A stretch of DNA of 64,000 bases from an uncultured Chthonomonadaceae bacterium (GTDB lineage: Bacteria > Armatimonadota > Chthonomonadetes > Chthonomonadales > Chthonomonadaceae), in assembly GCA_963817895.1 (NCBI GenBank), contig CAWFQB010000002.1, positions 224,001 to 288,000 on the forward strand. Direction: 5' to 3'. Below are positions 8,944 through 27,100 of the stretch, piece by piece. Each line of letters starts with the position of its first letter. Position 1 is the first letter of the stretch. Position numbers and translations under genes: made by a program. The notes under the pieces were generated by a model. The model was given only the letters and a program-made list of their open reading frames with translations. It did no database searches and had not been told where the DNA came from.

Positions 8944-9149
8944 GTTTGCTCGTCTGACATTTGCCTTCTACACAACAGGATTGCCGTTATATTCAGACGC
9001 CGTGCAAAGATATTCCTGCACGGCGTTTGTCGGAATTTATCAGGAGGATTTTGAGTTCCGTTCAGCGAAAAGAATGCGGCGTCTTGAACCATGTTTTCCA
9101 CATTTTTATGCTGTATGGTAGTGGCTTGGACAGGAGTGAGGTACTTGTA

Positions 9150-11585
9150 TTGAGCGATGATAATTTACTACAACCTGAACTGCTCAACGAAGCCGATACT
9201 TGCCGGAAGTACGTCACGCCACGCCTGCAAGCCGCAGGCTGGGAAGCCGAGCCGCACTCGCTCGTGGAGCAGTACACCTTTACCGCGGGCCGCATCCAGA
9301 TTAGGGGCCAGAAGGCGAAGCGCAAGCCCGGCAAGCGTGCCGATTATCTACTTCGCTATACCCGTGATTACCCCATCGCAGTTGTTGAGGCAAAGGCCGA
9401 AGAATTGCCCGCCGCGCAAGGCGTTGAACAGGCGAAAGAGTACGCAGAGGTGCTTGGGCTGTATTTCGCCTATTCTACAAATGGCAAAGAAATCATTGAA
9501 TTCGACTACCTGGCAGGAACGGAACAGGTTGTTGCCGACTATCCCACCCCTGCCCAATTATGGCAGCGGCTTCGGGTAGCACGCAAAGTGACTAAAGACT
9601 CCGAGGCGGTTTTGCTGTCGCCCTCCTACCATCAGGGTGTAGGTGCAACACGCTACTATCAGGACATCGCCATCCAGCGCGTACTGGAAGCCGTCCTTGC
9701 CGGACAACGCCGGGTTCTTCTCACCTGCGCTACGGGTACTGGCAAGAGCAATATCGCCTTTCAGATTGCTTGGAAGTTGTGGAATGCGCGCTGGAACCAG
9801 ACAGGCCGCCAGGGACGCCCGCGTGTTTTGTTTATTGCTGACCGCTCGGTGTTGGTTGACGACCCTATGGACAAAATGTTCGCGCCGCTCGGTACAGCGA
9901 GACACAAGATCGAAGGCAAGGCAGAGACCGGGCGCGACATCTACTTCGCCACCTATCAATCTCTTGCCGGAGACGAGCGGCGAGACGGGTTGTATCGTGA
10001 GTTCGATCCCAACTTCTTTGACCTGGTGATTGTGGATGAAGCGCATCGAGGCAGCGCACGCGAGGATTCCAACTGGCGCGACATCCTCAACCATTTTGCA
10101 CCGGCCTATCAGTTGGGTATGACCGCCAGCCCCATACGCGATTCAAATCGCGACACCTACCAGTATTTCGGCAACCCCGTTTATACATATAGTCTCAAGC
10201 AAGGAATAGATGACGGCTTCCTCGCACCGTACCGCGTTTACCGCATCCAAACTGTCTGGGATGAGATTGGCTACCGCCCCGGCAAGGGAGCCGTAGATCG
10301 ACATGGGCAGGCTATCCCCGACGAAATCTTCAAGACCAAAGACTTCGAGCGCGTCATTGTGTTGCAGGCGCGCACGGAGGCCATTGCTCGTCACCTCTCC
10401 GACTTTCTCAAGTCCACAGATCGGTTCGCCAAAACCATCGTGTTTTGCGCGAACCAGGAACACGCGCTCGCCATGCGGCAGGCGCTTATCAATGAGAACC
10501 GCGACCTGGTAAAAACCTACCCCAACTACGTTTGTCGGGTGACGGCTGACGAGGGCGACATCGGACGGGCTCATCTGTCACGCTTTCAAGAAGTGGACAC
10601 CAAAACGCCCACAATCCTGACAACGAGCCAACTGCTCACTACGGGCGTAGATGCCCCCACTTGCAAGAATGTCGTTCTCGTGCGCCCGATTGACAGCATG
10701 GTGGAATTCAAACAGATAATCGGCAGGGGAACACGGGTTCGGGAAGACTACGGCAAACTGTTCTTCAACATTCTTGATTACGCAGGTTCCGCGAGCGAAC
10801 GCTTCGCCGACCCACAATTCGATGGCGATCCGGCCCTGCTCACTGAAATAGAATTGGACGAACACGGGCAGGCCACTGAGGAGAACATCCGCGCCGCTGA
10901 GGAGAAAGAAGCCTCTGATCCCGAAGACGAAGATGCCAATGTAGGTGAGGAGGATGCCGATGAAGGTTATACTGGCGGCTACAAAGGCGGCGGGCGACGC
11001 AAGAAGTATTATGTAGACGGCGGCATCGTTCAGATTGCCAGCGAGATTGTACAGGAATTAGACGCGGATGGTAATGTCCTGCGAGTCATGCGTCTGACCG
11101 ACTACACGGCAGACAAGATGCGGATGCTGTGCGCCACGCCCGAAGAAATGCAGCAGTCATGGAGCGACCCGGTACAGCGGGGCGAGATCGTGAACGCGCT
11201 GGAAGAACGCGGCATAGATTTTGAGGAACTGGCGCGCGTAGTGGGCAAGCCGGACGCCGATCCCTTCGACGTACTCTGCCATCTCGCCTACCAAGCGCCC
11301 CTGCTCACCCGCCGTGAGCGCGCCGACCGATTGAAGCGCAGTAAGCCCGACTTCTTTGACGCCTACGGCCCTACCGCCCGTGCCATTTTGGAAGAACTAC
11401 TGGACAAGTACGCAGAGCATGGCGTGGAGCAGTTTCAAATTCCCGATGCGCTGAAAGTGCCGCCGATTTCCAACCACGGCAACATTTCGGAGATCATAAA
11501 GGCGTTTGGCGGCGCGGAGGTGTTGAGAAGCGCGGTGATGGGATTGCAAGCCATGCTGTACGAACAGGCGGGAACCGCCAGATGA
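9150..11585 (+). CDS. hsdR: Type I restriction enzyme R subunit (EcoEI-like)
   Basis: EADT..ADYLL..VVEAK nuclease; ATGTGKS, VDEAHRGS, FKQIIGRGTR helicase motifs; EcoEI-type C-terminus; TTG start after aggag. Confidence 0.93.
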   Translation: MSDDNLLQPELLNEADTCRKYVTPRLQAAGWEAEPHSLVEQYTFTAGRIQIRGQKAKRKPGKRADYLLRYTRDYPIAVVEAKAEELPAAQGVEQAKEYAEVLGLYFAYSTNGKEIIEFDYLAGTEQVVADYPTPAQLWQRLRVARKVTKDSEAVLLSPSYHQGVGATRYYQDIAIQRVLEAVLAGQRRVLLTCATGTGKSNIAFQIAWKLWNARWNQTGRQGRPRVLFIADRSVLVDDPMDKMFAPLGTARHKIEGKAETGRDIYFATYQSLAGDERRDGLYREFDPNFFDLVIVDEAHRGSAREDSNWRDILNHFAPAYQLGMTASPIRDSNRDTYQYFGNPVYTYSLKQGIDDGFLAPYRVYRIQTVWDEIGYRPGKGAVDRHGQAIPDEIFKTKDFERVIVLQARTEAIARHLSDFLKSTDRFAKTIVFCANQEHALAMRQALINENRDLVKTYPNYVCRVTADEGDIGRAHLSRFQEVDTKTPTILTTSQLLTTGVDAPTCKNVVLVRPIDSMVEFKQIIGRGTRVREDYGKLFFNILDYAGSASERFADPQFDGDPALLTEIELDEHGQATEENIRAAEEKEASDPEDEDANVGEEDADEGYTGGYKGGGRRKKYYVDGGIVQIASEIVQELDADGNVLRVMRLTDYTADKMRMLCATPEEMQQSWSDPVQRGEIVNALEERGIDFEELARVVGKPDADPFDVLCHLAYQAPLLTRRERADRLKRSKPDFFDAYGPTARAILEELLDKYAEHGVEQFQIPDALKVPPISNHGNISEIIKAFGGAEVLRSAVMGLQAMLYEQAGTAR

Positions 11586-12154
11586 AAATCAACTTTGGTG
11601 TCTTCGGCAAGAAAGACGAATTCGCCATCGAGATTCCTGAGCCTTTTGCGGCGGCACCTGACGAACCAGAACATACAAGTGCCACTGGCATCATAGCGGA
11701 TGTCGAGGAAACCCACAGTCTTGCAAAGGCATTCCGTCAGGCAATTCAGAAGTGTGACCAAGATTTGCTGCCCATAAACTTTGAACGTTTTCCAAATGGA
11801 GCCTGCGGCGTGACCTCGCGCCTGCTGCAAAAGTACCTGCGTGAGCGTGATCAGGGCGAGTTTAATTACATCTATGGAATACGGACGTGGAAATCCCAGA
11901 GTTGGCGCTCTCACGCCTGGTTGGAACAGAACGGCTTGATTGTGGACATCACTGCGGATCAATTTTATGATATGCGACGGGCTGTGTTGGTTACAACGGA
12001 TCGCGCATGGCATACTAAGTTTCGTAAACGACGAATTTCTCGTGGCACAACATGGGAAAGGGGCAGTTGTTCGGCAGACGAAAATCTGCTTACCACCTAT
12101 CCGCACATTGCCACCCTCGCGGATGAAATTCGAGAAAAAAGTAGGAAGGATTGA
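11582..12154 (+). CDS. Hypothetical protein with papain/transglutaminase-like Cys-His-Asp motifs, inserted between hsdR and hsdM
   Basis: FPNGACG..S.LL; SHAWLE..GLIVDITADQF; 4-nt overlaps with both neighbours. Confidence 0.7.
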   Translation: MKINFGVFGKKDEFAIEIPEPFAAAPDEPEHTSATGIIADVEETHSLAKAFRQAIQKCDQDLLPINFERFPNGACGVTSRLLQKYLRERDQGEFNYIYGIRTWKSQSWRSHAWLEQNGLIVDITADQFYDMRRAVLVTTDRAWHTKFRKRRISRGTTWERGSCSADENLLTTYPHIATLADEIREKSRKD

Positions 12155-14040
12155 CAGAGCACATGCCTTCGAGAAAAAAGGAGCAAATGGAACTGGCAGG
12201 GATGCCCGCAAAGCCCATACGTGCTAAACGCGAGGAAAAACAGGTGACCACGGCGCAGCGTCTTGGCAGTCTCGTCAAGTCCGCGCGCGACCTCATGCGT
12301 AAAGATAAGGGACTTTCCGGGGACGCTGACCGGCTGCCGCAACTCACCTGGATTATGTTCCTCAAGTTCCTAGACGATTTGGAACGAACGCGCGAGGAGG
12401 CGGCTCCGCTATCCGGGGAGGTGTTCCGCCCTATTCTGGAAACTCCCTACCGCTGGCGCGATTGGGCGGATCGTGAGAGTGGGCCAACCGGCGACGACCT
12501 TTTGGATTTCATCGGCGGGCAGGAAGTTGTAATTGGCAAGGATGCGACTGGGGCGGACATCAAAAAGCCGGGGCTGTTTCGGTATTTGCGCGGCTTTCAA
12601 GGCAGTGATAATCCGCAACGCGCCGTCATCGGCAACATCTTCCGAAATGTCCAGAACCGCATGAACGACGGGTATCTCCTTCGCAGTGTTTTGAACCTTG
12701 TAGATGGGATTCATTTCGACAGCAGCGAGGAAATTCATACCCTGGGCCGGTTGTACGAGTCCATGCTCAAGGAGATGCGTGATGCAAGTGGCGACGCCGG
12801 GGAGTTTTATACGCCGCGCCCGGTCGTAAGGTTCATGGTCGAGGTGATGAACCCTCGCTTGGGCGAAACTGTGTACGATCCTGCCTGCGGCACAGGCGGC
12901 TTCCTGAGTGAGGCGTTCCTCCACCTCAAGCAGCAGTGCCGCAGGGCAGAGGATAACTCTACATTGCAGGCGCGCAGCATCCTGGGCGGTGAGGCCAAAC
13001 CGCTGCCGTATCTGCTGTGTGAAATGAATTTGCTGTTGCACGGGTTGGACGCGCCGGACGTGCGCTTCGACAATAGCCTCAAGGTACGGCTGGGCGAAAT
13101 TGGTGAACAAGAGCGCGTGAGCGTGGTACTTACCAACCCACCTTTCGGCGGTGAGGAGGAGGCGAGTGTGCAGAACGGCTTTCCAGCCGACAAGCGCACA
13201 TCGGAGACAGCCCTGTTGTTTCTGCAACTCATTATGAGGAAATTGCATCGTAGTCCTGAGCCGGGGCGAGCAGGCGTGGTTGTGCCCAACGGCATCTTGT
13301 TTGCGGACGGCGTTGCGGCGCGCATCAAGGAGGAACTGCTCACGGAGTTCCGCCTGCATACCATTGTGCGACTGCCCGTTGGTGTCTTCGCGCCGTACAC
13401 CAGCATCCCCACGAACCTGCTGTTTTTCGAGGCGGGCGCACCCACAACAGAAATCTGGTATTACGAGCAGCCTTTGCCCGAAGGCCGCAAATCCTACTCT
13501 AAGACGCAGCCCATGCAGTACGAGGAGTTTGCCCCGCTCTTAGCCTGGTGGGATGTGCGCGAGGAGAATGAGCGCGCCTGGCGTGTGGATTGGACACAGA
13601 CCTATGAGACGGCGCGCACGGCGGCACAACCGCACTGGGACGCCGCGCAGGAAGCGGAAGCCAAAGCCCGCGAGTATGGCGCGACAGCGAAGGAGGCGGG
13701 TGAGCAGATGCAATCGGCGCAACGTCTTCTGCAATCCGGGATGCTGCCGCAGGAGGAGCGCGCTCGCATACAGGCTGAAATCGAGAACCAGCGTGCCCGA
13801 CGCGATCAGGCCCAAGAAATCGAACGCAGCCTTCGGGAGCGCGTCCGCGAGGAGCAGACAAAAGGCGATGCCCTGTATTGGCCCATCTACAACCTGGATC
13901 GCAAAAATCCGAGTCGTGCTGAGGACTTTGAACATTTGCCGCCTGAACAACTGATTGGCGATATTCTGAATAAAGAACTGCAAATTATCTCTTTGATGCA
14001 AGAGATCGAGCGAGCGCTTTTGGTAGGGGTAACAGCATGA
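12151..14040 (+). CDS. hsdM: Type I RM N6-adenine methyltransferase
   Basis: GEFYTPRPVV, YDPACGTGGFL, LTNPPFGG; ~100-aa coiled-coil insert near the C-terminus. Confidence 0.93.
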   Translation: MTEHMPSRKKEQMELAGMPAKPIRAKREEKQVTTAQRLGSLVKSARDLMRKDKGLSGDADRLPQLTWIMFLKFLDDLERTREEAAPLSGEVFRPILETPYRWRDWADRESGPTGDDLLDFIGGQEVVIGKDATGADIKKPGLFRYLRGFQGSDNPQRAVIGNIFRNVQNRMNDGYLLRSVLNLVDGIHFDSSEEIHTLGRLYESMLKEMRDASGDAGEFYTPRPVVRFMVEVMNPRLGETVYDPACGTGGFLSEAFLHLKQQCRRAEDNSTLQARSILGGEAKPLPYLLCEMNLLLHGLDAPDVRFDNSLKVRLGEIGEQERVSVVLTNPPFGGEEEASVQNGFPADKRTSETALLFLQLIMRKLHRSPEPGRAGVVVPNGILFADGVAARIKEELLTEFRLHTIVRLPVGVFAPYTSIPTNLLFFEAGAPTTEIWYYEQPLPEGRKSYSKTQPMQYEEFAPLLAWWDVREENERAWRVDWTQTYETARTAAQPHWDAAQEAEAKAREYGATAKEAGEQMQSAQRLLQSGMLPQEERARIQAEIENQRARRDQAQEIERSLRERVREEQTKGDALYWPIYNLDRKNPSRAEDFEHLPPEQLIGDILNKELQIISLMQEIERALLVGVTA

Positions 14041-15189
14041 GCATAGGGTGGCCTCTCGTTCCATTGGCAAAAGTCGCTCGTCCTATCTCTCGCGTAGTGT
14101 CCGTTACATCTGGGGAAACCTATCGCACGATTGGGGTAAGGTGGTGGGGAGAGGGAGCGTATGAACGGCAAACCATAGACGGCTCCCAGACTGCCGCAAA
14201 AACCCTGAACATCGTCCGCGAAAACGATTTGATCATTAACAAAATATGGGTGCGACATGGTTCGACCGCAATTGCGTCTGCTGCGGTGGATGGATGTGCG
14301 GCTTCCGGCGAGTTTCCGATGTTTGAACTTGATCCAAGTCGTGTTATGCCACGTTGGATACACTGGTTGACCAAAATGCGTCCCTTCTGGGATAGTTGTG
14401 ACCGACTTTCTCAAGGAACAAGCGGCAAGAACCGCATACGTCCAGAGTTATTTCTCACAATCTTAGTTCCACTTCCGCCCCTACACGAACAGCAGCGCAT
14501 CGTGGCGCACATTGAGGAGTTGGTGGGCAAGATTACGCAAGCGGGGGAACTGAGACGTGAAAGCCGGAGAGATATGAGGGCTGCTCTACTGGCTTCCTAC
14601 TCGGCGATCATTAAAGACGCCTGCCGATTCACCATGTCAACTGTCGCTCCGCTGGTGCGCCGTCCCATCAATGTTATCGAAGAAACACTTTACCCGGAAC
14701 TTGGAATTCGGTCGTTTGGTAAAGGTACTTTCCATAAATCTCCAGTAAGGGGGAGTGAAATCGGCTCCAAACGGCTGTTTGGTATCGAACCTGGCGATCT
14801 GTTGTTCAACATTGTTTTCGCATGGGAGGGCGCAGTAGCCATTGCAAAACCAGAAGATGTTGGGCGCGTAGGTTCCCATCGCTTTCTGACTCGTGTTGTA
14901 AATCCCGATTTGGCGTTAGCCTCTTATCTCTGTTTCCACTTTTTGACCGAAAGAGGACTGGAACAACTACCAGCAAGCATCTCCCGGTGGCGCAGGAAGA
15001 AATCGCACTCTCGGCCTCAAAACATTGGAGAAAATTGAAGTACCGATTCCAACTCTTGACGCACAACGAACATTCGATAGATTGTTGGCGCGCAGTGACG
15101 CAATTGAAGCGTTGCAAAAAGAGGCCGATGTAAAAATAGAAGCCCTTGTACCTTCGTTGCTCGACCTGGCGTTCAGGGGCGAACTTTGA
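14037..15189 (+). CDS. hsdS: Type I RM specificity subunit; +1 frameshift at ~14971 (probable sequencing error)
   Basis: Two TRDs, PLPPLHEQQRIV; the shifted frame continues QQASPGGAGRNRTL...IPTLDAQ...SLLDLAFRGEL* (TGA 15187-15189). Confidence 0.85.
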
Positions 15190-15249: not shown

Positions 15250-15297
15250 TTTCCAGTGTGCAAAAATTTTGCACACTGGAAATTTTTATGCTATAAT
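15250..15297 (+). promoter_or_regulatory. Sigma70-type promoter with an overlapping 33-bp perfect palindrome (putative XRE operator)
   Basis: tttccagtgtgcaaaa-a-ttttgcacactggaaa (15250-15282); -35 TTGCAC 15269-15274, 17-nt spacer, extended TGn-TATAAT 15292-15297. Confidence 0.8.
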
Positions 15298-15352: not shown

Positions 15353-15874
15353 ATGAAAAAGAATTCAGCAGGCGGGTCGCCCCAGTCGGCCTCGGTCGTC
15401 AGTCTGGAAGATTTGGGGAAACTGATCCGCGAAAAGCGTAAGGCTGCGGATTTGACATTGGAACAGGCCGCGCAACAAGCAGGTGTCAGCGCGGCAACTC
15501 TTTCTCGATGGGAACGACAGGGAAGATTGCAAGAAGGCGTTGATGGTACAGCACGAACGATGCGCACCCCCGACATGCAGACCCTTGCCGCTATTACCCG
15601 CTGGCTCGGAGTGTCCATAGATAGGGTTAGCACTTTCGAGACACCACCGCCCGCGCACAGTGTGGTGCATCACGCAGGCGAAGCCACGCCTGACATTGTA
15701 GAAGCCCATCTAAGAGCAGATCGCAACCTTGACCCGGACACAGCCGGGGCGCTGTCGCGGATGTTTCGGGTCGCCTATGAGCAGTTTGCCAAGTTGCAGG
15801 CTGCTGCGCCGTCCGAAGATCGTCCAGAAAGGAAACCGGATAATGAGCCGGATGACGCCACCAAAACACAATGA
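15353..15874 (+). CDS. XRE-family HTH transcriptional regulator
   Basis: LGKLIREKRKAADLTLEQAAQQAGVSAATLSRWERQG. Confidence 0.88.
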   Translation: MKKNSAGGSPQSASVVSLEDLGKLIREKRKAADLTLEQAAQQAGVSAATLSRWERQGRLQEGVDGTARTMRTPDMQTLAAITRWLGVSIDRVSTFETPPPAHSVVHHAGEATPDIVEAHLRADRNLDPDTAGALSRMFRVAYEQFAKLQAAAPSEDRPERKPDNEPDDATKTQ

Positions 15875-16499
15875 GGACAAGGAAAGTAGCAATCGCGCGC
15901 CGCGTATAGTGACGACTGGATTGCGCGAGTTTCTGCGACGGATCGAGGAGAACGGACTGGCTCTGCGGCAGAAGGCAGGTATTGGGCCGGAAGAACGACT
16001 GTATCCGCGCAGACTGGCGACAGAGTTCAAGTTGCACTTCATGGAACTCAACGATATGGAAGCGCTTGCGCCCGCAGACCGGGCACACATCGAAAGCAGT
16101 GATGCCAGGAAGTGGTCGGGCAGCGGTCTTCCGCTTCCCAATGACGAGTGGTTGATTATCTTGCACCCCTGCCAAACACCGGAGCGCGCCACCGTGACCA
16201 CGATGGAAGAAATAGCGCATGTTCACTATAGACACAAACCTTGTCGCCTGGTAACAGATGCAGCCGGGGTGACGCATCGGGAGTACGACCCGGAAATTGA
16301 GGACGAAGCCTACTGGACAGCATCCGCAGCCCTATTGCCTTCTAAAGCCCTGGCGCGGCGCGTGTATAAAGGCGTGACCACGCAAGCCATTGCCGCGGAG
16401 TTCGGCGTCAGCACACAACTGGTAGAGTTCCGCATTAAGACACTGGGGTTGTGGAGTGACCACAAAGCGCGCCATCGGGAGGAGGCAGTCACCGCATGA
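15843..16499 (+). CDS. ImmA/IrrE-family metallopeptidase (EExxH variant)
   Basis: PERATVTTMEEIAHVHYRH...EIEDEAYWTASAALLP...IAAEFGVS..LVEFR; start uncertain. Confidence 0.8.
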   Translation: MSRMTPPKHNEDKESSNRAPRIVTTGLREFLRRIEENGLALRQKAGIGPEERLYPRRLATEFKLHFMELNDMEALAPADRAHIESSDARKWSGSGLPLPNDEWLIILHPCQTPERATVTTMEEIAHVHYRHKPCRLVTDAAGVTHREYDPEIEDEAYWTASAALLPSKALARRVYKGVTTQAIAAEFGVSTQLVEFRIKTLGLWSDHKARHREEAVTA

Positions 16500-17479
16500 A
16501 AGTGTCTATTGAGGAGTTCAGTGCCTTATTATCCACGCCCTTGAGGGAACTTGGGGCGAAGCAGGTCGCTCGTTCCTCCTACCATGCGGATCAAAATGGT
16601 TACCGGATGGCAACATCTCCATCCAGTACAGATGGATTATTGCAAACTCGGCTGCGAATGTCGTTTTCGGCGGCGGAGCGGGAAGCGGTGAGATTGGTGG
16701 CACAGAACCGCCCGCTCCCGTTGCGGGAGTTCGACCAAATACCAATGTACAACCGCGATCTGCTCCGTCAGGCCAAATTGATCGCACCCTATCTGGCGGG
16801 TAAGACAGTCGCCTTTGTGGGAGACATTGATAGCACTAGCCTGATGCTGGGGATGCTAACCCTCTGTAGCAACCCGTCGCCTGCGCGTATGGTACTGCTC
16901 GACTTCGATGCCCGCCTGCTCACGGCGGCAAGGAAAATGGCGTCTCGCTATGGGTTTTCACGTCTGCTGGAAACCCGGATGCACAATTTCTTTGATCCTG
17001 TGCCCGCTGACCTGATTGGTACCTGTGATTGGTTTTATACCAACCCACCTTTCGGCTCGAACAATCAAGGGGCGAGCGCACAATTGTTTATAGCACGCGG
17101 ACAGGAACTCTGCAAAGAGGAAGGGGCAAGCGGCTGTATTATCATGCCATACGACACGAACAGAGCGTGGACTACGCAGACATGGCTGGCAACGCAACGG
17201 TTCCTTGTAAATGGCGGATGGGGTGTACGCGAAAAAGTGGATGGTATGCACCGTTACCATTTGGATGATGACCCGGAACTGACCTCCTCCATGATCTTGG
17301 TAGATGCAATCATGGGAGGATTACTGGACGCTGCATCTTACGCAGGGCGGCGCGTTCCTTTTGATGAAATCCCTTTGTTCTATGGGCGTAGTGTGCAGCC
17401 GCCGTATCCGCGCTACATTCGAGAGGACGGCAGTTTCGACATGGATTGGAGCGTCGAGGAAGGCGGTTACAGCATATAG
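16496..17479 (+). CDS. BpsA/DUF43-like SAM-dependent transferase (branched-chain polyamine synthase family)
   Basis: RPLPLREFDQ, FVGDIDSTSL, LDFDARL, DPVPADL.G..DWFYTNPPF..LFIARG; ATGA overlap with the peptidase gene. Confidence 0.75.
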   Translation: MKVSIEEFSALLSTPLRELGAKQVARSSYHADQNGYRMATSPSSTDGLLQTRLRMSFSAAEREAVRLVAQNRPLPLREFDQIPMYNRDLLRQAKLIAPYLAGKTVAFVGDIDSTSLMLGMLTLCSNPSPARMVLLDFDARLLTAARKMASRYGFSRLLETRMHNFFDPVPADLIGTCDWFYTNPPFGSNNQGASAQLFIARGQELCKEEGASGCIIMPYDTNRAWTTQTWLATQRFLVNGGWGVREKVDGMHRYHLDDDPELTSSMILVDAIMGGLLDAASYAGRRVPFDEIPLFYGRSVQPPYPRYIREDGSFDMDWSVEEGGYSI

Positions 17480-17480
17480 C

Positions 17481-17960
17481 ATGGAAGAACAAATGGATAA
17501 CTCAACCCGCCGAACGTGGATTTTTCAAGGAAATCCTGATAAGTACCGTCTCGAAAATGCGCTGCAAAACGAAAAGGAAGAATGGTGGAATCTGAATCAA
17601 CACGCCAAGAGTGTGCGCGCCGGGGATCGCGCTTTGATCTGGATTTCTGGAGAGAAGGCAGGGATTTATGCGATTGGCAGTGTGCTGACCGCCCCGGAAG
17701 TCCGGCCTGACTCCACGACTGGCACAGGTTACTGGTACAACCCCACCGAAGGTCTAAAAGCGAAGTCCCGTGTCCGTGTGCGCTACGAACGTCTGCTGTT
17801 CAAACAGCCATTGCGAAAGGCATATTTACAAGCCGACCCCAACCTGTGGGATATGACCATTCTCCACATGCCGCGCGCGACAATCTTTGCGGTCAGCGCG
17901 GATGAATGGCAGGCTATTGAAGCCTGGTTGGATGAGAATACAGACGCCGAAGTATTATAG
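17481..17960 (+). CDS. EVE (PUA-like) domain protein
   Basis: TWIFQGNPDKY..W..VRAGDRALIWISG..AGIYAIG.V; starts 1 nt after the upstream stop. Confidence 0.8.
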   Translation: MEEQMDNSTRRTWIFQGNPDKYRLENALQNEKEEWWNLNQHAKSVRAGDRALIWISGEKAGIYAIGSVLTAPEVRPDSTTGTGYWYNPTEGLKAKSRVRVRYERLLFKQPLRKAYLQADPNLWDMTILHMPRATIFAVSADEWQAIEAWLDENTDAEVL

Positions 17961-18131: not shown

Positions 18132-20471
18132 ATGCCACAGACCACAAATCAGACCAACAACACCAGCCTACTTCTGAATATCGCTCCGGTAGAGTTTCAG
18201 GATAGGGAGATCGCAGTGGGCGTATTCGCCTATGCTGACAATCAACAATTGCGCACCCTACGAAGCGAATACCGAGAGACACACCTTTTCCGACGTGAAC
18301 GCAACAATGAGCAAGACGAGATTTTGTGTGTTCCCCTCATTTCAGACGTTGAACCACTGGGTGACAAGACACGAACCATTCGGCTTTACAATCATCTTCA
18401 CCTTTGTGCGGCGCTCGTTCGCGAGGCCATGCTTGAATTTCTCTATAAGCATGGCATCCAGAGTTTTGGGTATGATCCAATCGAGTACGTGGTCAACGCA
18501 GTCGGTGATGATCTCCTGCGCGCCTCGCTACCTTCTGGCGTGGTGGCACCCTCATGGATTTCCGTTAAGGTACTCAACGCATTGACAATCCGCCCGATGC
18601 ACATGGAACGCCAAGCGCCGTTTGTGGGTGTCGCGCTTGACTTTCACGCACAGCACCTTGTGAATGTTCCCTGCGATCAGTTGATTGCAATGGGGTTGAA
18701 CATCAAGGGATTATACGTCAGTCAGGCATTGCCCGAATCAGACCCGCGTGTGTTTCCGCGTGAGCGACTGTTGGGGCGCGTTCAGTCTGTGCAGAATGGA
18801 AAATTGTCGCTTTCAGATGTGCGCCATGACGATGGCCCGGACTGTGTAGAGGCCAGTGCCGTATACCTTGAACCACGTCACGACGCCTTCGATGTATGTC
18901 TGAACCATGCGTTCAAGCAGCGTGTCAGGCAAGTAAGAGACAACCTACACCGCAACCTGCACCAAATTCAAAGTGGCCCAGATAAGTTGGATCGGCTTCG
19001 CAAACGCATGGAAACGCTAACTAACCGCAAGACACCATTGGAAATGCTGCCTGGCATTCCGTTCTCGTTCCAGCCATTTCTCGCGGAGGGGACAAGCAAA
19101 ACGTTTCCGCTCGTGAACCACGCCAAGCGCCCCGTCTACGTGTTCGATCCTACTGGTACGCGCACGGCAGAGTATAATGACCCCGGCATCACCCAATACG
19201 GCCCATACAGTGCCTACGGCAACCTGTTCACGCCGAACCTACCCAACATGGTCGTGATCTGCCAGAAGAACAAAAAGGGACTCGTCGAACAGTTTCTCGC
19301 CAAGTTCAAGACAGGCATCGCCGGGTCGCGTTTTGAGACCGGATTTGTGGGTAAATACCGGTTGGCAGATGTCAACTTCGAGTTTTTCCTTACGGAGACG
19401 GAGAGTGCGGAAGACTATGAGGAAGCGGCAAACCGCGCCATTCACGCCTACGCCAAAGCCGACAAGCGCATCCACTTAGGCTTTGTGCAAATAGAAGACC
19501 GGTATCGTGAATTGCGTGGAGGGACAAATCCCTATTTGGTAACAAAGGCTGCTTTTTTGTCACACCAAATCCCTGTTCAGGAGTTCACCATCCAGAAGGC
19601 GACACAGGAAGACAAATATCTCTCGCATATTCTGAACACGATAGGGCTGGCGGTATATGCCAAACTTGGCGGAACGCCCTGGCTCATGCCATCCAACCGT
19701 GTGATCGCTCACGAACTGGTTTTCGGATTGGGCAGCGCGCAGGTGAATGAAGGACGGTTTGGAGAGCGACGCAGATATGTGGGCATCACCACGGTGTTCA
19801 GTGGAGATGGCAATTACCGTCTCGCCAATCTGTCGCAGGCAGTGCCTCTAAGGAGGTATGAGGAAGCGTTGCTCGACTCCCTGCGGGAAACCGTAACTAA
19901 AGTGCGCGCCGACAATAACTGGCAACCCGGCGACACTGTACGCCTGATATTCCACGCATTCAAACCCATGAAATATGCTGAGATCGACGCCGTAACTGCG
20001 TTGATGGATGAACTTGGCGACTACGAAGTAGAATTCGCCTTTCTACACATTGCCGAGGAACACCCGTACCTCCTGTTCGACCCGGCGCAGAAGGGTGTGT
20101 ATTCCTACGAAATCCGGGCCAATAAAGGCGTATATGCCCCTATGCGCGGCATATACTTCCGCCTTTCCGAACACGAAACTCTGATGTCGCTTGTCGGCGC
20201 GCGTGAAGTTAAAAGACCAGAAGATGGTCTGCCACGTCCAGTGCTTTTGAAACTACATCCACGCTCCACGTTCGCGGATCATATCTATCTCGCCCGCCAA
20301 GTTTTTATGTTTTCCTGTCACTCATGGCGAAATTTTACGCCTGGCGCACACCCAGTTACGATTCATTATTCATCGCTGATAGCACGTATGCTCGGCGAAT
20401 TGGAAACAGTGCCGACGTGGAATCCAAACGTTATGTATGGAAGGATTGGCGAAACAAGGTGGTTCCTATAA
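18132..20471 (+). CDS. ago: Long-B prokaryotic Argonaute (RsAgo-like, catalytically inactive PIWI)
   Basis: 779 aa; MID NPYLVTK..IPVQ..YAKLGG; PIWI HELVFGLG, GITTVFSGDG, WQPGDTVRLIFHA, PVTIHYS; ends RWFL; no DEDX tetrad. Confidence 0.92.
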   Translation: MPQTTNQTNNTSLLLNIAPVEFQDREIAVGVFAYADNQQLRTLRSEYRETHLFRRERNNEQDEILCVPLISDVEPLGDKTRTIRLYNHLHLCAALVREAMLEFLYKHGIQSFGYDPIEYVVNAVGDDLLRASLPSGVVAPSWISVKVLNALTIRPMHMERQAPFVGVALDFHAQHLVNVPCDQLIAMGLNIKGLYVSQALPESDPRVFPRERLLGRVQSVQNGKLSLSDVRHDDGPDCVEASAVYLEPRHDAFDVCLNHAFKQRVRQVRDNLHRNLHQIQSGPDKLDRLRKRMETLTNRKTPLEMLPGIPFSFQPFLAEGTSKTFPLVNHAKRPVYVFDPTGTRTAEYNDPGITQYGPYSAYGNLFTPNLPNMVVICQKNKKGLVEQFLAKFKTGIAGSRFETGFVGKYRLADVNFEFFLTETESAEDYEEAANRAIHAYAKADKRIHLGFVQIEDRYRELRGGTNPYLVTKAAFLSHQIPVQEFTIQKATQEDKYLSHILNTIGLAVYAKLGGTPWLMPSNRVIAHELVFGLGSAQVNEGRFGERRRYVGITTVFSGDGNYRLANLSQAVPLRRYEEALLDSLRETVTKVRADNNWQPGDTVRLIFHAFKPMKYAEIDAVTALMDELGDYEVEFAFLHIAEEHPYLLFDPAQKGVYSYEIRANKGVYAPMRGIYFRLSEHETLMSLVGAREVKRPEDGLPRPVLLKLHPRSTFADHIYLARQVFMFSCHSWRNFTPGAHPVTIHYSSLIARMLGELETVPTWNPNVMYGRIGETRWFL

Positions 20472-21682
20472 GCAAAACAAGCAGTATTCTTTTCAGCGAT
20501 GTACGGGCAACACTGGCACGGGTGGCACAACAAGCCGAAGGCCGCAATGATGCCGTAGAAGCCGCTTGCGCATGGTTGCTCCCCGGTCTGGATACAGTCT
20601 CAAGACTGGCAACAATGGCAGAACACGCGGCTACCTGTAAAGGGCAGATGCGCTCCTACAAACAGGTTGCCGTCTTAGGGTATGCGGCAAGTCTGTTGCT
20701 GGACAAGTTCCAACAGCAGGCTGCACTCGAAAATGGTCTGAAATGGCTTTCTGGCTTGCCTGCTATGAGTGCGGGCGCACTTATGGGCTTCGCCACTGAT
20801 CCCGTCTCGTTGCTTGGTATCGCACTCGGAACAAGATGCGCTTGTGATGAAGTAAAGTCTGCCGTACGGAATTGGGCTGCTAAATTTCTTTCTGACGAGT
20901 ATAACGCTCTGGGTACGGAACCGTGGCACAGTTGCTTGCTGGCGGTCACAGCACAGATTTTAACAATAGAACCTGTGTTACCCATTCCCATTGAGACGGA
21001 AGCAGCGTGTGTGCGGGTCGCCATGCGATCAAAAGGATTATTGCCTGCAAACTCCTCGAATGAAGCGGACGAGGAGTTTGTCTTAACACTTCTGAAAGAA
21101 AGCCGTGCTACAGAAACGGATTGCACCCATGCTGCCATTCAGATGGTCGCACTCGACTGGATTAGGCGCAAAGCGCCAACCGTTATACCAGCGCGCATGA
21201 CGCCTGAAGATGTCGTCAGTCTGTTGAAACATACGGAGTTCGCCCTCAAGCGTTGGACTTGGGAGGACAAGCCCAAAACCACAACAGGAATCGCTCGACA
21301 GTGGCACATAGACAATGAGTACCATTTGCAAAATCTGCTGTGGACACTCCTCGCCCCCATATTTCCTGACCTCACAGACGAGGAATATACCATTCAACTC
21401 GGCTCTAAAAATCCTCGCATTGATCTTGGCATTCCTTCCCTCAAATTGATCATTGAAGCAAAATTCATGCGCATGGGCGACCCGCCGAAAAAGTTTATTG
21501 AGGAGATTGCGGCAGACGCCAGCCTTTATTTGGTGGAAGGGGCGCGGTACAACCAGATTGTCGCTATTATTTGGGATGACACAGCACGCACAAACCTGCA
21601 CACAGAGATGATACGCGCTATGAACCAGATTGATGGTGTGCTGGATGCCGTAGTTGTGTCCCGCCCAGGAAACTGGACATGA
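20459..21682 (+). CDS. Argonaute-associated PD-(D/E)XK nuclease (C-terminal DpnII/MboI-like REase domain)
   Basis: NEYHLQNLL..F.DL.DEE..RIDL..IIEAK..EEIAAD..Y; GTG 20459 overlaps the ago stop, ggaagga upstream. Confidence 0.8.
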   Translation: MVPISKTSSILFSDVRATLARVAQQAEGRNDAVEAACAWLLPGLDTVSRLATMAEHAATCKGQMRSYKQVAVLGYAASLLLDKFQQQAALENGLKWLSGLPAMSAGALMGFATDPVSLLGIALGTRCACDEVKSAVRNWAAKFLSDEYNALGTEPWHSCLLAVTAQILTIEPVLPIPIETEAACVRVAMRSKGLLPANSSNEADEEFVLTLLKESRATETDCTHAAIQMVALDWIRRKAPTVIPARMTPEDVVSLLKHTEFALKRWTWEDKPKTTTGIARQWHIDNEYHLQNLLWTLLAPIFPDLTDEEYTIQLGSKNPRIDLGIPSLKLIIEAKFMRMGDPPKKFIEEIAADASLYLVEGARYNQIVAIIWDDTARTNLHTEMIRAMNQIDGVLDAVVVSRPGNWT

Positions 21683-21860: not shown

Positions 21861-23237
21861 CTAAACGCTGTGAACGACATCAGGTTTCGCTGAAGTTGCA
21901 ACGCCACTGGTCATGGCTTGTGTGTTGGTCAGGTGGGCGGCTTCGGCGAGCCAGCCGGTCAAAGGTGCTGCGATGTCAGTTGTATTGTGGTTTTCGCGCC
22001 TCAACCTGATTTGGACATGAACGCAATTGCCACGCCATTCATATTGACTACAAAACAGGGCTGTCACCTTTTCTCGATATGCACTGACCATGAACTCGGC
22101 GACGGCACGCACAAACACTGCTCGGTCAGTACCTTTATAGAGGTAGATGGAAGGCAAAAGGCGTATTGTCCACTGTCTGGCTGGCAATAGTTCAATGGTG
22201 TAAAGCCCCGTGTTCGGATTATGCTCGAAGTCCAGCGCAAACCGTGCTGGCTCACAGTTGAGTAGATTGAGCGTTTGGAGTAGCCCTTGATCCAGAAACA
22301 GCCTTGCCGCATCCGGCTTGGGGGTGGGCTTGGGCCGCGTTGGGTGCGCGGCTTCTGCAAGCCAGTGCGCGAGCGCTCCGCGAGGTGGCGTCTCGTCGTC
22401 TGTATTGCGGGACATAGATGCGAAACTTATTGTGTCGTCGTGGAACTTGCTGGCGTAGGGGTAACGCGCATACAAGTCGGCGATGGCGCGTGCAAACATC
22501 GCCGGATCATCGCCCTCGTACATTACTTCAAACGCTTCTGGTGACATTGGTTGCAGACGCGACGCGTGCAACCTCTGATTATCGCGTACTTTGATGCAGA
22601 ATAGCCCATCCTTTGTACCGATTCCATTGATATGATGATGCACAAATTTGATGTAAAAATCCGCATCAGGATGGTCAAGTCCAAGCGTTTTCAGAAAAGC
22701 CACGATGCCGCGCCTTCGTAGTCTGTGGGGGCGGTTCTTCTCCTCACGTATCTGCCTCTTGAGCGAAACAGCCAGTTGAAAGTCCGGGCTTCCAGGGGCC
22801 AGATCAATGGCCTCTTTGCGCTTCTCCAACGGCTGGATATAAGGAGCCGCTCCTCTTTTTATTTTTGCAAAAGGATCGGCATTTTCGCAGACAGAACAAA
22901 CATTGCTGCATCCAAATCCCCCGTCTTGCACGACATCGCAGCGAGTAATGTAGGGCGAAGCCATAAGTCTTTGAAACAAGTACATCATTTCCATCCAAGA
23001 CAAGTTCTCAAGCCGCAGAAAGGGCGTGGAAACCGAACACATGCCCGGCTCACCGACAACATCTGACCTTCCCCCTTTCTTTCGTTCCACACTGAAGCGA
23101 ATCGGCGTCTTGGCCTCTTGCATGGCGTCATAAACCAGGCTGCGTCCATCCTCGGACAAGCGATAGCGTGTGGGGTTGATGGCCCCGGTTTCATCTCGCA
23201 GAGAGTTGAGCAAACGATGAATGCGTCCCATTTTCAA
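21861..23237 (-). CDS. Hypothetical protein, paralog copy 1
   Basis: 458-aa ORF nearly colinear with 25756..27100. Confidence 0.75.
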   Translation of the reverse strand: MKMGRIHRLLNSLRDETGAINPTRYRLSEDGRSLVYDAMQEAKTPIRFSVERKKGGRSDVVGEPGMCSVSTPFLRLENLSWMEMMYLFQRLMASPYITRCDVVQDGGFGCSNVCSVCENADPFAKIKRGAAPYIQPLEKRKEAIDLAPGSPDFQLAVSLKRQIREEKNRPHRLRRRGIVAFLKTLGLDHPDADFYIKFVHHHINGIGTKDGLFCIKVRDNQRLHASRLQPMSPEAFEVMYEGDDPAMFARAIADLYARYPYASKFHDDTISFASMSRNTDDETPPRGALAHWLAEAAHPTRPKPTPKPDAARLFLDQGLLQTLNLLNCEPARFALDFEHNPNTGLYTIELLPARQWTIRLLPSIYLYKGTDRAVFVRAVAEFMVSAYREKVTALFCSQYEWRGNCVHVQIRLRRENHNTTDIAAPLTGWLAEAAHLTNTQAMTSGVATSAKPDVVHSV

Positions 23238-25755: not shown

Positions 25756-27100
25756 TCATCGTTGATCCGACTCACTTGCCGTTGGAAGCCGCGCTGCCTC
25801 CTCAAGCCAGCCCGTTAAAGGTGCTTTGATGTCGGTGATATGGTAGTTTTTGTGCCTCAACCTGATTTTTACATGAACGGTGTTGCCAGCCAAATCAGAA
25901 TGTCCGCAGTACAGGGATGTAACCTTCTCTCGATAGGCGCTTTCCATGAACTCAGCCACGGCGCGCACAAACACCGCTCGGTCAGTGCCATTATAGAGGT
26001 AGATGGAAGGCAGAACCCGTATTGTCCACTCGCGGGCAGGCAATAGTGTAATGGTGTAAAACCCCGTTTTCGGATTATGCTCGAATTCCAAAGCAAAACG
26101 TGCTGGTTCACAGTTGAGTAGATTAAGGGTGTGAACTAATCCCTCTACCAGAAAGCAGGCTCGCCATATCCGGCTTCGGGGCGGGCTTGGGCCGCGTTGG
26201 TTGCGCGGCCTCGGCAAGCCACTGTGTGAGCATTCCGGGTGGCGGCATCTCGTCGTCTATGGAGACGCGAGACGAAGTGAATGTTAGTTCGCAGCCATGT
26301 GTATCAAGGGAATGCTGGTGGAATTTGCTGGCGCAGGGATAATGTGTATGAAGGTCGGCGATGGCGCGGGCAAACATCGCGGGATCATCGCCCTCATAGA
26401 GCATGACAAACGCTTCGGGCGAATTTGGTTGCAGACGCGATGCACGTATCTGGTGGTTATCGCGTACCCTGATGTTGAACACCCCATCCTTTGTGCCGAT
26501 CTCATCGATGTGATGGTGCAGGAATCCGATGGAGAAATCTGCGTCCGGTTGATCGAGTCCAAGCGTTTGCAGAAAAGCCATGATGCCGCGTCGTCGTAGC
26601 CTATGGGGGCGGTTCTTCTCCTCGCGCACCTGCTTTTTGAGCGAAACGGCAAGTTGAAAGTCCGCGCTTCCAGGAGTGAGATCAATGGTATCCTGGCGCG
26701 TTCCCCACTTTCCTCCGCTGGGAACATACTGTGTGGAGGCGATCAACGGATTAGGGGTTTCTGTCACCGTTATTCTTGGCACAAAACCCTGTATGCTACC
26801 TGAGTGTATGTTGCAGCGGGTGATGAAGGGAGATGCCACTATTTGTTGGTGCAAGTAGACAACTTCCAGCCAAGAGAGATCGCGCAGGCACATCCCCGGA
26901 CACGAAATGGAGTAACCACAGGGGACAGGCCGTATGTCACGTTCGATGCGATGTTTAATGTGAAAGTGGAGGGGTGTCTTCGGCGGTAACGTCGCGTCAT
27001 AAAGCAGGCTGCGCCCATCCCCGGACAAGCGATAGCAGGTGGGGTTGACAGTGCCGGTTTCATCTCGCAGATAATTGAGCAAACGATGGATGCGTCCCAT
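25756..27100 (-). CDS. Hypothetical protein, paralog copy 2 (frameshift ~26150)
   Basis: ORFs 26123..27100 plus 25756..26217 together match 21861..23237. Confidence 0.7.

Follow-up and report, generated by a model that had tools for sequence, protein, structure and literature searches.

A putatively self-repressed four-gene cassette joining an XRE-M78 regulator to a BpsA-derived transferase and an EVE domain, with a proposed role in nucleobase alkylation

Pairs of an XRE-family helix-turn-helix (HTH) repressor and an M78 metallopeptidase, such as CapH/CapP, DdrO/IrrE and ImmR/ImmA, head defence-like operons and act through an operator over the promoter (10.1101/2022.04.27.489752, 10.64898/2026.05.16.725639). 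Within the 64,000-nucleotide stretch analysed here (the window), from contig CAWFQB010000002.1 of an uncultured Chthonomonadaceae bacterium, a pair of this type opens a cassette that continues with a transferase derived from BpsA and with an EVE domain protein. The initial annotation had described four tightly coupled genes; coordinates of the open reading frames (ORFs) and profile matches agree, all four lying on the plus strand and joined by overlaps or a 1-nt gap (Table 1). Unlike the described pairs, that of the cassette is co-directional with its cargo instead of divergent, its peptidase carries EExxH and not HExxH and has no GAF domain, and its cargo is not among the types given in the accessible parts of those reports. 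The best reading is that the cassette is a mobile, self-repressed four-gene unit, and we judge it moderately probable that it works as an inducible, EVE-guided writer and reader of base alkylation, likely directed against phages or mobile elements.

The enzyme closest to the transferase, BpsA, shares with it the PF01861 profile, the fold, the G-D-x-D motif, the FDQ loop and the equivalent of Tyr290 (PMC12979288, accessible part). The cassette enzyme differs in having GDxD, NPPY/F instead of the motif IV Asp, and neither the acidic aminopropyl-carrier tail nor the N-terminal domain, and it lies outside polyamine operons, in mesophilic-type, mobile contexts. Transferases fused or coupled to EVE-like readers, with base modification as the proposed activity, are found in (PIN)-GNAT-EVE operons and DCD-methyltransferase fusions, and GNAT-EVE operons also have AAA_17 ATPase/kinase and XRE neighbours and nearby restriction-modification (RM) systems (PMC7641849); the cassette writer, in contrast, is a BpsA derivative with an S-adenosylmethionine (SAM)-type fold, not a GNAT, and stands with an M78 peptidase. 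Rossmann methyltransferase fusions are called extremely rare among EVE domains in the accessible part of that study, whose main text does not mention peptidase, COG2856, IrrE, DUF43 or spermidine. In Metis (PUA-Cal-HAD) and Kongming systems a modified base or nucleotide is the immune cue, read by a PUA-like or HAM1 domain and sometimes made by the system's own methyltransferase (10.1101/2025.11.05.686725, 10.64898/2026.01.15.699771, 10.1101/2024.12.20.629578, accessible parts). Unlike these, the cassette has no calcineurin, HAD, Sir2 or deaminase and couples an EVE reader to a peptidase-repressor pair; none of the Metis type III or Kongming domains (MisA/MisC, HAM1-Sir2 effector, PUA or HAM1 sensor) was found in it. 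The initial annotation knew of no system of this make-up, and our full-text literature search likewise found no description of the cassette or of its transferase clade; Burroughs and Aravind 2020, Iyer et al. 2013 and supplements may cover relatives. The regulator type and the idea of a writer with EVE have precedents, and the combination appears to be new; a new base chemistry, which would make the cassette much more than a variant, is possible but doubtful.

Conservation and regulation of the cassette

A profile was built from 64 of 120 listed homologues, and 20 genome loci and 75 metagenome loci were fetched. The complete order XRE-peptidase-transferase-EVE is present in 14 of the 20 genome loci, from entries titled Chthonomonadaceae, Armatimonadaceae, Solirubrobacteraceae, Chloroflexota and Deinococcota; an insertion interrupts the transferase gene at locus L045. 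A cassette-type peptidase or EVE was found in 55 of the 95 loci, and all four genes in 30/30 of those with enough flanking DNA, a group defined by carrying one of the partners and in which near-duplicate contigs were counted. This recurrence goes beyond chance, conservation of the operon being a point raised by the initial annotation. An independent draw of 401 genomes of the G304 phylum gave three strong peptidase matches, all with the cassette (two of the three being seed genomes). Presence is patchy: the cassette occurs in 2 of 41 relatives, and 301 genomes of its own phylum gave 2 strong transferase matches. No relative of the transferase or peptidase was found in the viral contigs searched, and the annotated phages searched gave one weak unannotated match only.

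Table 1. Coordinates of the cassette, its control region and its neighbours in the window.
Feature	Position	Strand	Remarks
XRE-family repressor	15353..15874	+	HTH_3 E 1e-10; HTH and conserved C-terminal LRADxxL helical domain
M78 ImmA/IrrE-type metallopeptidase	15843..16499	+	Peptidase_M78 E 3e-14; overlaps XRE; alternative start 15852
BpsA-derived class I Rossmann transferase	16496..17479	+	BpsA_C-like/PF01861 E 4.6e-17; ATGA overlap with peptidase gene
EVE domain protein	17481..17960	+	PF01878 E 1.9e-22; 1-nt gap after transferase; alternative start 17493
Putative tandem XRE operator	15250..15282	.	dyads 15250-15263 and 15269-15282, 14 bp each
Sigma70-like promoter	15268..15297	+	extended -10 TG-n-TATAAT, 15292-15297
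Type I RM: hsdR, 190-aa unknown, hsdM, hsdS	8961..15189	+	upstream neighbour, outside cassette
Long prokaryotic Argonaute (PADLOC class II) and Aga_Helical-REase	18132..21682	+	downstream neighbour, outside cassette

Three points overlooked in the initial annotation are the EExxH motif of the peptidase, the GDDD-to-GDID change of the transferase and the operator. In the peptidase (218 aa), EExxH (E122, E123, H126) with E153 is in register with the IrrE motif. Glu replaces the first zinc-ligand His in 43 of 44 aligned peptidases, with the catalytic Glu, the second His and the third-ligand Glu retained, and because of this replacement peptidase activity is a prediction. The protein ends after its HTH-like part and lacks a GAF domain. 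As it is the GAF domain that forms the single-stranded DNA (ssDNA) groove of CapP and IrrE (10.64898/2026.05.16.725639, accessible part), the predicted induction by DNA damage is less secure than was assumed, and the question arises of what activates M78 regulators that have no known ssDNA sensor.

The same peptidase type, often with XRE, is present in 28 of 351 genomes of the G315 phylum. EExxH was seen in 25 of the 30 peptidase loci there, and neither transferase nor EVE in any of the 30 within about 1.5 kb, which rules out EExxH as a cassette-specific trait. Since the XRE-peptidase pair occurs in that phylum without the other two genes, it is a portable regulator, with transferase and EVE as its cargo in the cassette. 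About 23 loci of the same phylum (among L139-L168) have the EExxH peptidase, with XRE in some, before a gene labelled by eye as a GAF-PP2C-like phosphatase; here the same regulator is put to another conserved use, distinct from the cassette.

The two dyads of the operator, each one mismatch from TTKCA-N4-TGMAA, jointly form a perfect 16-bp inverted repeat that overlaps the -35 box; the repeat also scores as a terminator and may double as that of the RM operon. In relatives, copies of the operator directly precede comparable -10 boxes. When dyads were counted without bias in 32 upstream regions (after removal of 4 near-duplicates), TTTC-N6-GAAA was found in 12, any dyad reaching 4 at most in 30 shuffles. 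With up to one mismatch, TTKCA-N4-TGMAA, a consensus derived from the same locus set on which its frequency was counted, is present in 17 of the 23 loci with a cassette-type XRE, against a shuffled mean of 1.0, and twice or more in 11 of them. It was found in none of the 9 loci of the Deinococcota variant of the cassette, in which a DUF6932 gene precedes a different HTH protein. The conservation of the operator points to autorepression by XRE, the binding itself being predicted.

A genome-wide operator regulon was considered and rejected, the 23 exact matches in 7.5 Mb being near a rough chance estimate; tandem pairs in the host genome are confined to the cassette and two copies of another XRE gene. 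A mobile-looking unit made up of an ankyrin gene, a small XRE and a divergent 670-aa gene is present twice (L131:5690-6012 and L132:4943-5265; G000 C2 220980 and C4 85233) and carries at the XRE start a mirrored operator-like dyad pair that resembles the cassette operator.

The transferase and its sister clades

The fold of the transferase is closest to BpsA 5xnc (Z 25.2, root-mean-square deviation 3.2, 238 aligned), as is its sequence; the next-closest folds are the RNA m6A methyltransferase METTL5 (Z 18.9) and PH1948 (Z 18.1). BpsA requires GDDD (Asp159, Asp160), Asp225, Glu259, Tyr290 and an acidic C-terminal carrier cluster, as far as the accessible part of PMC12979288 states. We mapped these residues on 5xnc and compared the motifs across 190 aligned sequences. 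Motif I is GDID here, and its third position is never D in the 47 clade sequences (GDxD), so that the Asp159 equivalent is replaced in every one and that of Asp160 retained; in the cassette enzyme the equivalents of Asp158/Asp160 and Tyr290 and the FDQ loop are kept. The NPPF that had been placed at motif IV by the initial annotation (residues 183-186) does align with Asp225 of Tk-BpsA. The DPxE of BpsA has become NPPY/F in 46 of the 47 clade sequences, as against GDDD with DP[TV] in 24 of 25 canonical BpsA-type proteins, and FYGR-x-V-x-PP stands in place of the DEE-type tail.

In amino-group nucleobase methyltransferases of the N6A/N4C type, motif IV reads (D/N/S)PP(Y/F/W), the fold is class I, motif I is glycine-rich and a target-recognition domain is present. 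The cassette enzyme, a single Rossmann domain with an isoelectric point of 5.7, has the motif IV and the fold, and neither the glycine-rich motif I nor the target-recognition domain. NPPY is a hallmark of enzymes whose substrates are planar amino groups; the carboxylate of SAM would be disfavoured by an acidic residue at the Asp159 position.

Clade proteins are publicly labelled bis-aminopropyl spermidine synthase, which implies a stress-induced enzyme making an unusual or branched polyamine, and a polyamine product was also one option of the initial annotation. BpsA is indeed the best match in both sequence and fold, and the equivalents of Asp158/Asp160 and Tyr290 are kept; against this product stand the loss of Asp159 and Asp225, of the acidic carrier tail and of the N-terminal domain, and a base reader that is always attached. 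The canonical BpsA-type locus checked adjoins PvlArgDC, SpeD and SpeE, whereas SpeD or SpeE was found beside none of the cassette loci. Searches of 15 cassette hosts, mostly incomplete genomes, found no S-adenosylmethionine decarboxylase (AdoMetDC) in 8, among which are the genome of the window itself (81% complete), the isolate Deinococcus saxicola and a single-chromosome assembly of 11.3 Mb (the PF01536 search matched in no control and is uninformative on this enzyme). The transferase thus fails BpsA membership despite its profile and fold, and the motif comparisons do not support the public label; polyamine synthesis is unlikely, and we leave that option only a very small probability.

As to grouping with housekeeping BpsA, a point raised by the initial annotation, the NPPY proteins stand apart from canonical BpsA in a BpsA-rooted FastTree tree of 117 trimmed sequences, with the EVE clade nested and GDDD forms mostly basal. 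Several deep nodes of the tree have low support, and the order of motif changes is therefore a suggestion: GDDD with DPxE (polyamine), GDDD with NPPY beside SpeD, GDGD with NPPY and a PUA-like partner, and GDxD with NPPY and EVE. That the NPPY clade comprises new nucleobase aminocarboxypropyl or aminopropyl transferases, linking a bulky mark, EVE/PUA-like reading, M78 proteolysis and a modified-nucleotide messenger, is a tentative proposal; if it held, the motif series would record a switch from polyamine to nucleobase and from decarboxylated SAM to SAM. The clade appears to be widespread and mis-annotated as polyamine synthases, and its members probably modify nucleobases.

Related GDGD or GDDD transferases with NPPY are present at 40 sister loci. 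A partner protein of 190 aa accompanies them at 27 of the 36 loci with room; it has no Pfam match, and its atlas neighbour cluster has PF24405 (Pua-like) on 12% of members. The model of this partner is confident and gave 17 structural matches, all weak (Z 2.0-3.5) and mostly to YTH, THYN1, the McrB N-domain and a 5hmC nuclease; comparison with the EVE profile gave no match, nor did Foldseek at E 0.001. The partner is probably a divergent PUA/EVE-like domain. An HExxH M78 peptidase occurs at 14 of the 40 loci, a two-helix membrane protein at 14, AAA_17 or guanylate-type kinases at 11 and MazG or Ham1 at 5. HhH-GPD, AsnB and radical SAM genes also recur, and one radical SAM fusion was seen. On three rhizobial plasmids an ATP-binding protein, the transferase and a hypothetical gene face a hypothetical gene and ImmA/IrrE.

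Several sister arrangements are of separate interest. Two sister loci keep GDDD and adjoin SpeD, Ham1, a kinase and a B12 radical SAM gene; the operons at L050:6569-10366 and L125:535-4256, one from a Woesearchaeota metagenome-assembled genome (MAG), are composed of SpeD, a short GDDD/NPPY transferase, Ham1, kinase and B12 radical SAM and form a candidate pathway for an aminopropylated nucleotide. At L102, L103, L104, L106 and L120, a GDGD/NPPY transferase with radical SAM-SPASM, HhH-GPD glycosylase, AsnB, MazG and a guanylate-kinase-like gene makes a candidate base-modification cluster. The HExxH M78 peptidase, two-helix membrane protein, transferase and PUA-like gene at L049, L100, L105, L107, L109, L110, L112, L114, L121 and L124 make up a sister four-gene system with a possible membrane effector. 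At L046:62-3457, L113 and L133-L135, the genes for an HTH protein, a long ImmA and a protein of 213 aa, which was judged PIN-like by eye and has no Pfam match, converge on the transferase and PUA-like genes.

The EVE domain and the proposed function

The aromatic pocket residues W13, W36, W54, Y63 and W85 of EVE are invariant. Among the 120 EVE relatives listed, the top five long ones are fusions to a cassette-type transferase and most other fusions carry AAA/McrB-type or nuclease domains; an M78 domain was found in none. A complex of peptidase, transferase and EVE was predicted with EVE in the role of partner; its score of 0.75, against 0.76 with the transferase replaced and 0.00 with EVE replaced, is counted neither for nor against an interaction. 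The option of a base mark read by EVE, the other proposal of the initial annotation, fits best, in view of the NPPY/F count, these fusions and the PUA-like sister partner.

Gene content, conservation, the operator, the motif changes and the coupling to a reader are observations; repressor cleavage and its trigger, the choice of SAM, action on nucleobases and a role in defence are inferred. XRE would bind the tandem operators over its own -35 box and hold the operon low. A stress or infection signal would activate the peptidase, which by analogy with CapH/CapP and DdrO/IrrE would cleave XRE. The induced enzyme, as its motifs suggest, would take SAM, and not its decarboxylated form, as donor for the N-alkylation of an exocyclic amine on a nucleobase, and EVE, fused to the transferase in some genomes, would recognise modified DNA or nucleotides. 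An adduct that blocks replication or translation would in this way be placed on nucleic acid that is foreign or already modified, and variable effector genes would be read through downstream in some loci. As for the group transferred, aminocarboxypropyl may be the leading candidate, falling short of an even chance; methyl is nearly as plausible and aminopropyl clearly less so. Were it aminocarboxypropyl or aminopropyl, DNA or nucleotides would carry a modification of a new kind and EVE domains would gain a new class of ligand; the cassette offers a compact, testable four-gene system with its own operator.

The defence role draws on neighbouring genes. In 13 of 33 loci, EVE has behind it a defence or nucleotide gene that runs in the same direction (TIR, AbiJ-NTD/Ndt, Uma2, MazG, AAA_17 kinase, DUF4062, DruE and Argonaute), and strong PADLOC matches (Druantia, RM, Hma, DISARM-like) were obtained in 9 of 26 longer loci, in a scan covering 110 of 184 candidate ORFs, with likely antisense frames dropped and a subtilase match excluded.

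Several points weigh against a base-alkylating defence cassette. Its enzyme activity, substrate, induction and phage phenotype are predicted only, and the peptidase departs from known M78 regulators in its first zinc ligand and in the absent GAF domain that senses ssDNA. Most hosts are incomplete MAGs, which makes the missing AdoMetDC soft evidence; NPPY is also found in protein-glutamine methyltransferases (weak HemK matches), which leaves a protein target open; and the sister partner is weakly PUA-like, with no profile match to EVE. The remaining 20 of the 33 loci have no recognised defence or nucleotide gene after EVE, no classic toxin was seen, and the defence-neighbour count has no background control.

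The kinase, MazG and Ham1 neighbours of the sister loci point to chemistry at the nucleotide level and would also suit a different order of events, a sentinel signalling loop. In it the transferase makes a private modified base or nucleotide, and EVE senses this as a free nucleotide, set free when the genome is degraded or produced upon infection; EVE then switches on the GAF-less peptidase, which cleaves XRE in the cassette and a two-helix membrane (2TM) or PIN-like effector in sister systems. Metis type III and Kongming offer precedents as far as their accessible descriptions go, a peptidase without a GAF sensor is in keeping with it, and so are the M78 peptidases beside the transferase at 14 of 40 sister loci with a 2TM or PIN-like gene and on the three rhizobial plasmids. 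EVE is, however, not an obligatory sensor for this peptidase, given the 30/30 G315-phylum loci that lack it; it fuses to the transferase and, among the 120 fusions listed, to no M78 domain, and most clade loci have no killing effector downstream. We regard this alternative as rather unlikely.

The RNA methyltransferases among the second-best folds raise another possibility, a protease-controlled toxin-antitoxin or dormancy module, in which host tRNA, rRNA or a protein is the substrate of the transferase, or SAM is depleted by it, and the role of EVE is to neutralise or direct the enzyme. GNAT-EVE systems have been proposed as toxin-antitoxin modules (PMC7641849, accessible part), the Deinococcota variant has its added DUF6932 gene, and the cassette often stands alone. 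The nearest fused relatives of EVE, however, belong to McrB-type restriction proteins, covalent transferase-EVE fusions suit targeting better than a labile antitoxin, and sister contexts include a DNA glycosylase and nucleotide-pool enzymes; such a module is improbable, and a writer and reader of base alkylation remains our preferred reading.

Neighbouring genes

The RM system upstream and the Argonaute downstream, both reported in the initial annotation, were identified as type I and as PADLOC class II, respectively. Typing with PADLOC 2.0, which that annotation had proposed, succeeded for these two neighbours and not for the cassette: its genes gave weak generic HTH/RmrA matches only (transferase E 0.0095, EVE none), and no curated PADLOC or NCBIfam model fits them beyond generic HTH matches. 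The link to RM and Argonaute that had been implied does not hold across the 14 cassette genome loci, where Argonaute was found next to none and HsdM next to one; a functional tie was rejected and the two are taken as incidental neighbours. In the window, the Argonaute and Aga_Helical-REase genes start 171 bp past EVE, co-oriented with it, and might be read through from the cassette promoter as local downstream cargo.

The hsdS gene (14037-15189) is frameshifted near 14974, its first frame stopping at 15038 and the second carrying a normal-looking HsdS C-terminus to 15189; this is a real lesion, phase variation or an assembly error. Between hsdR and hsdM, a gene of unknown family at 11582-12154 (190 aa) has marginal Pfam matches only, and the fetched loci gave no homologue of it. 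On the minus strand, two related ORFs of unknown family (21861-23237, 458 aa, and 25756-27100, 325+153 aa) form a repeat within an ankyrin-rich stretch resembling a mobile element.

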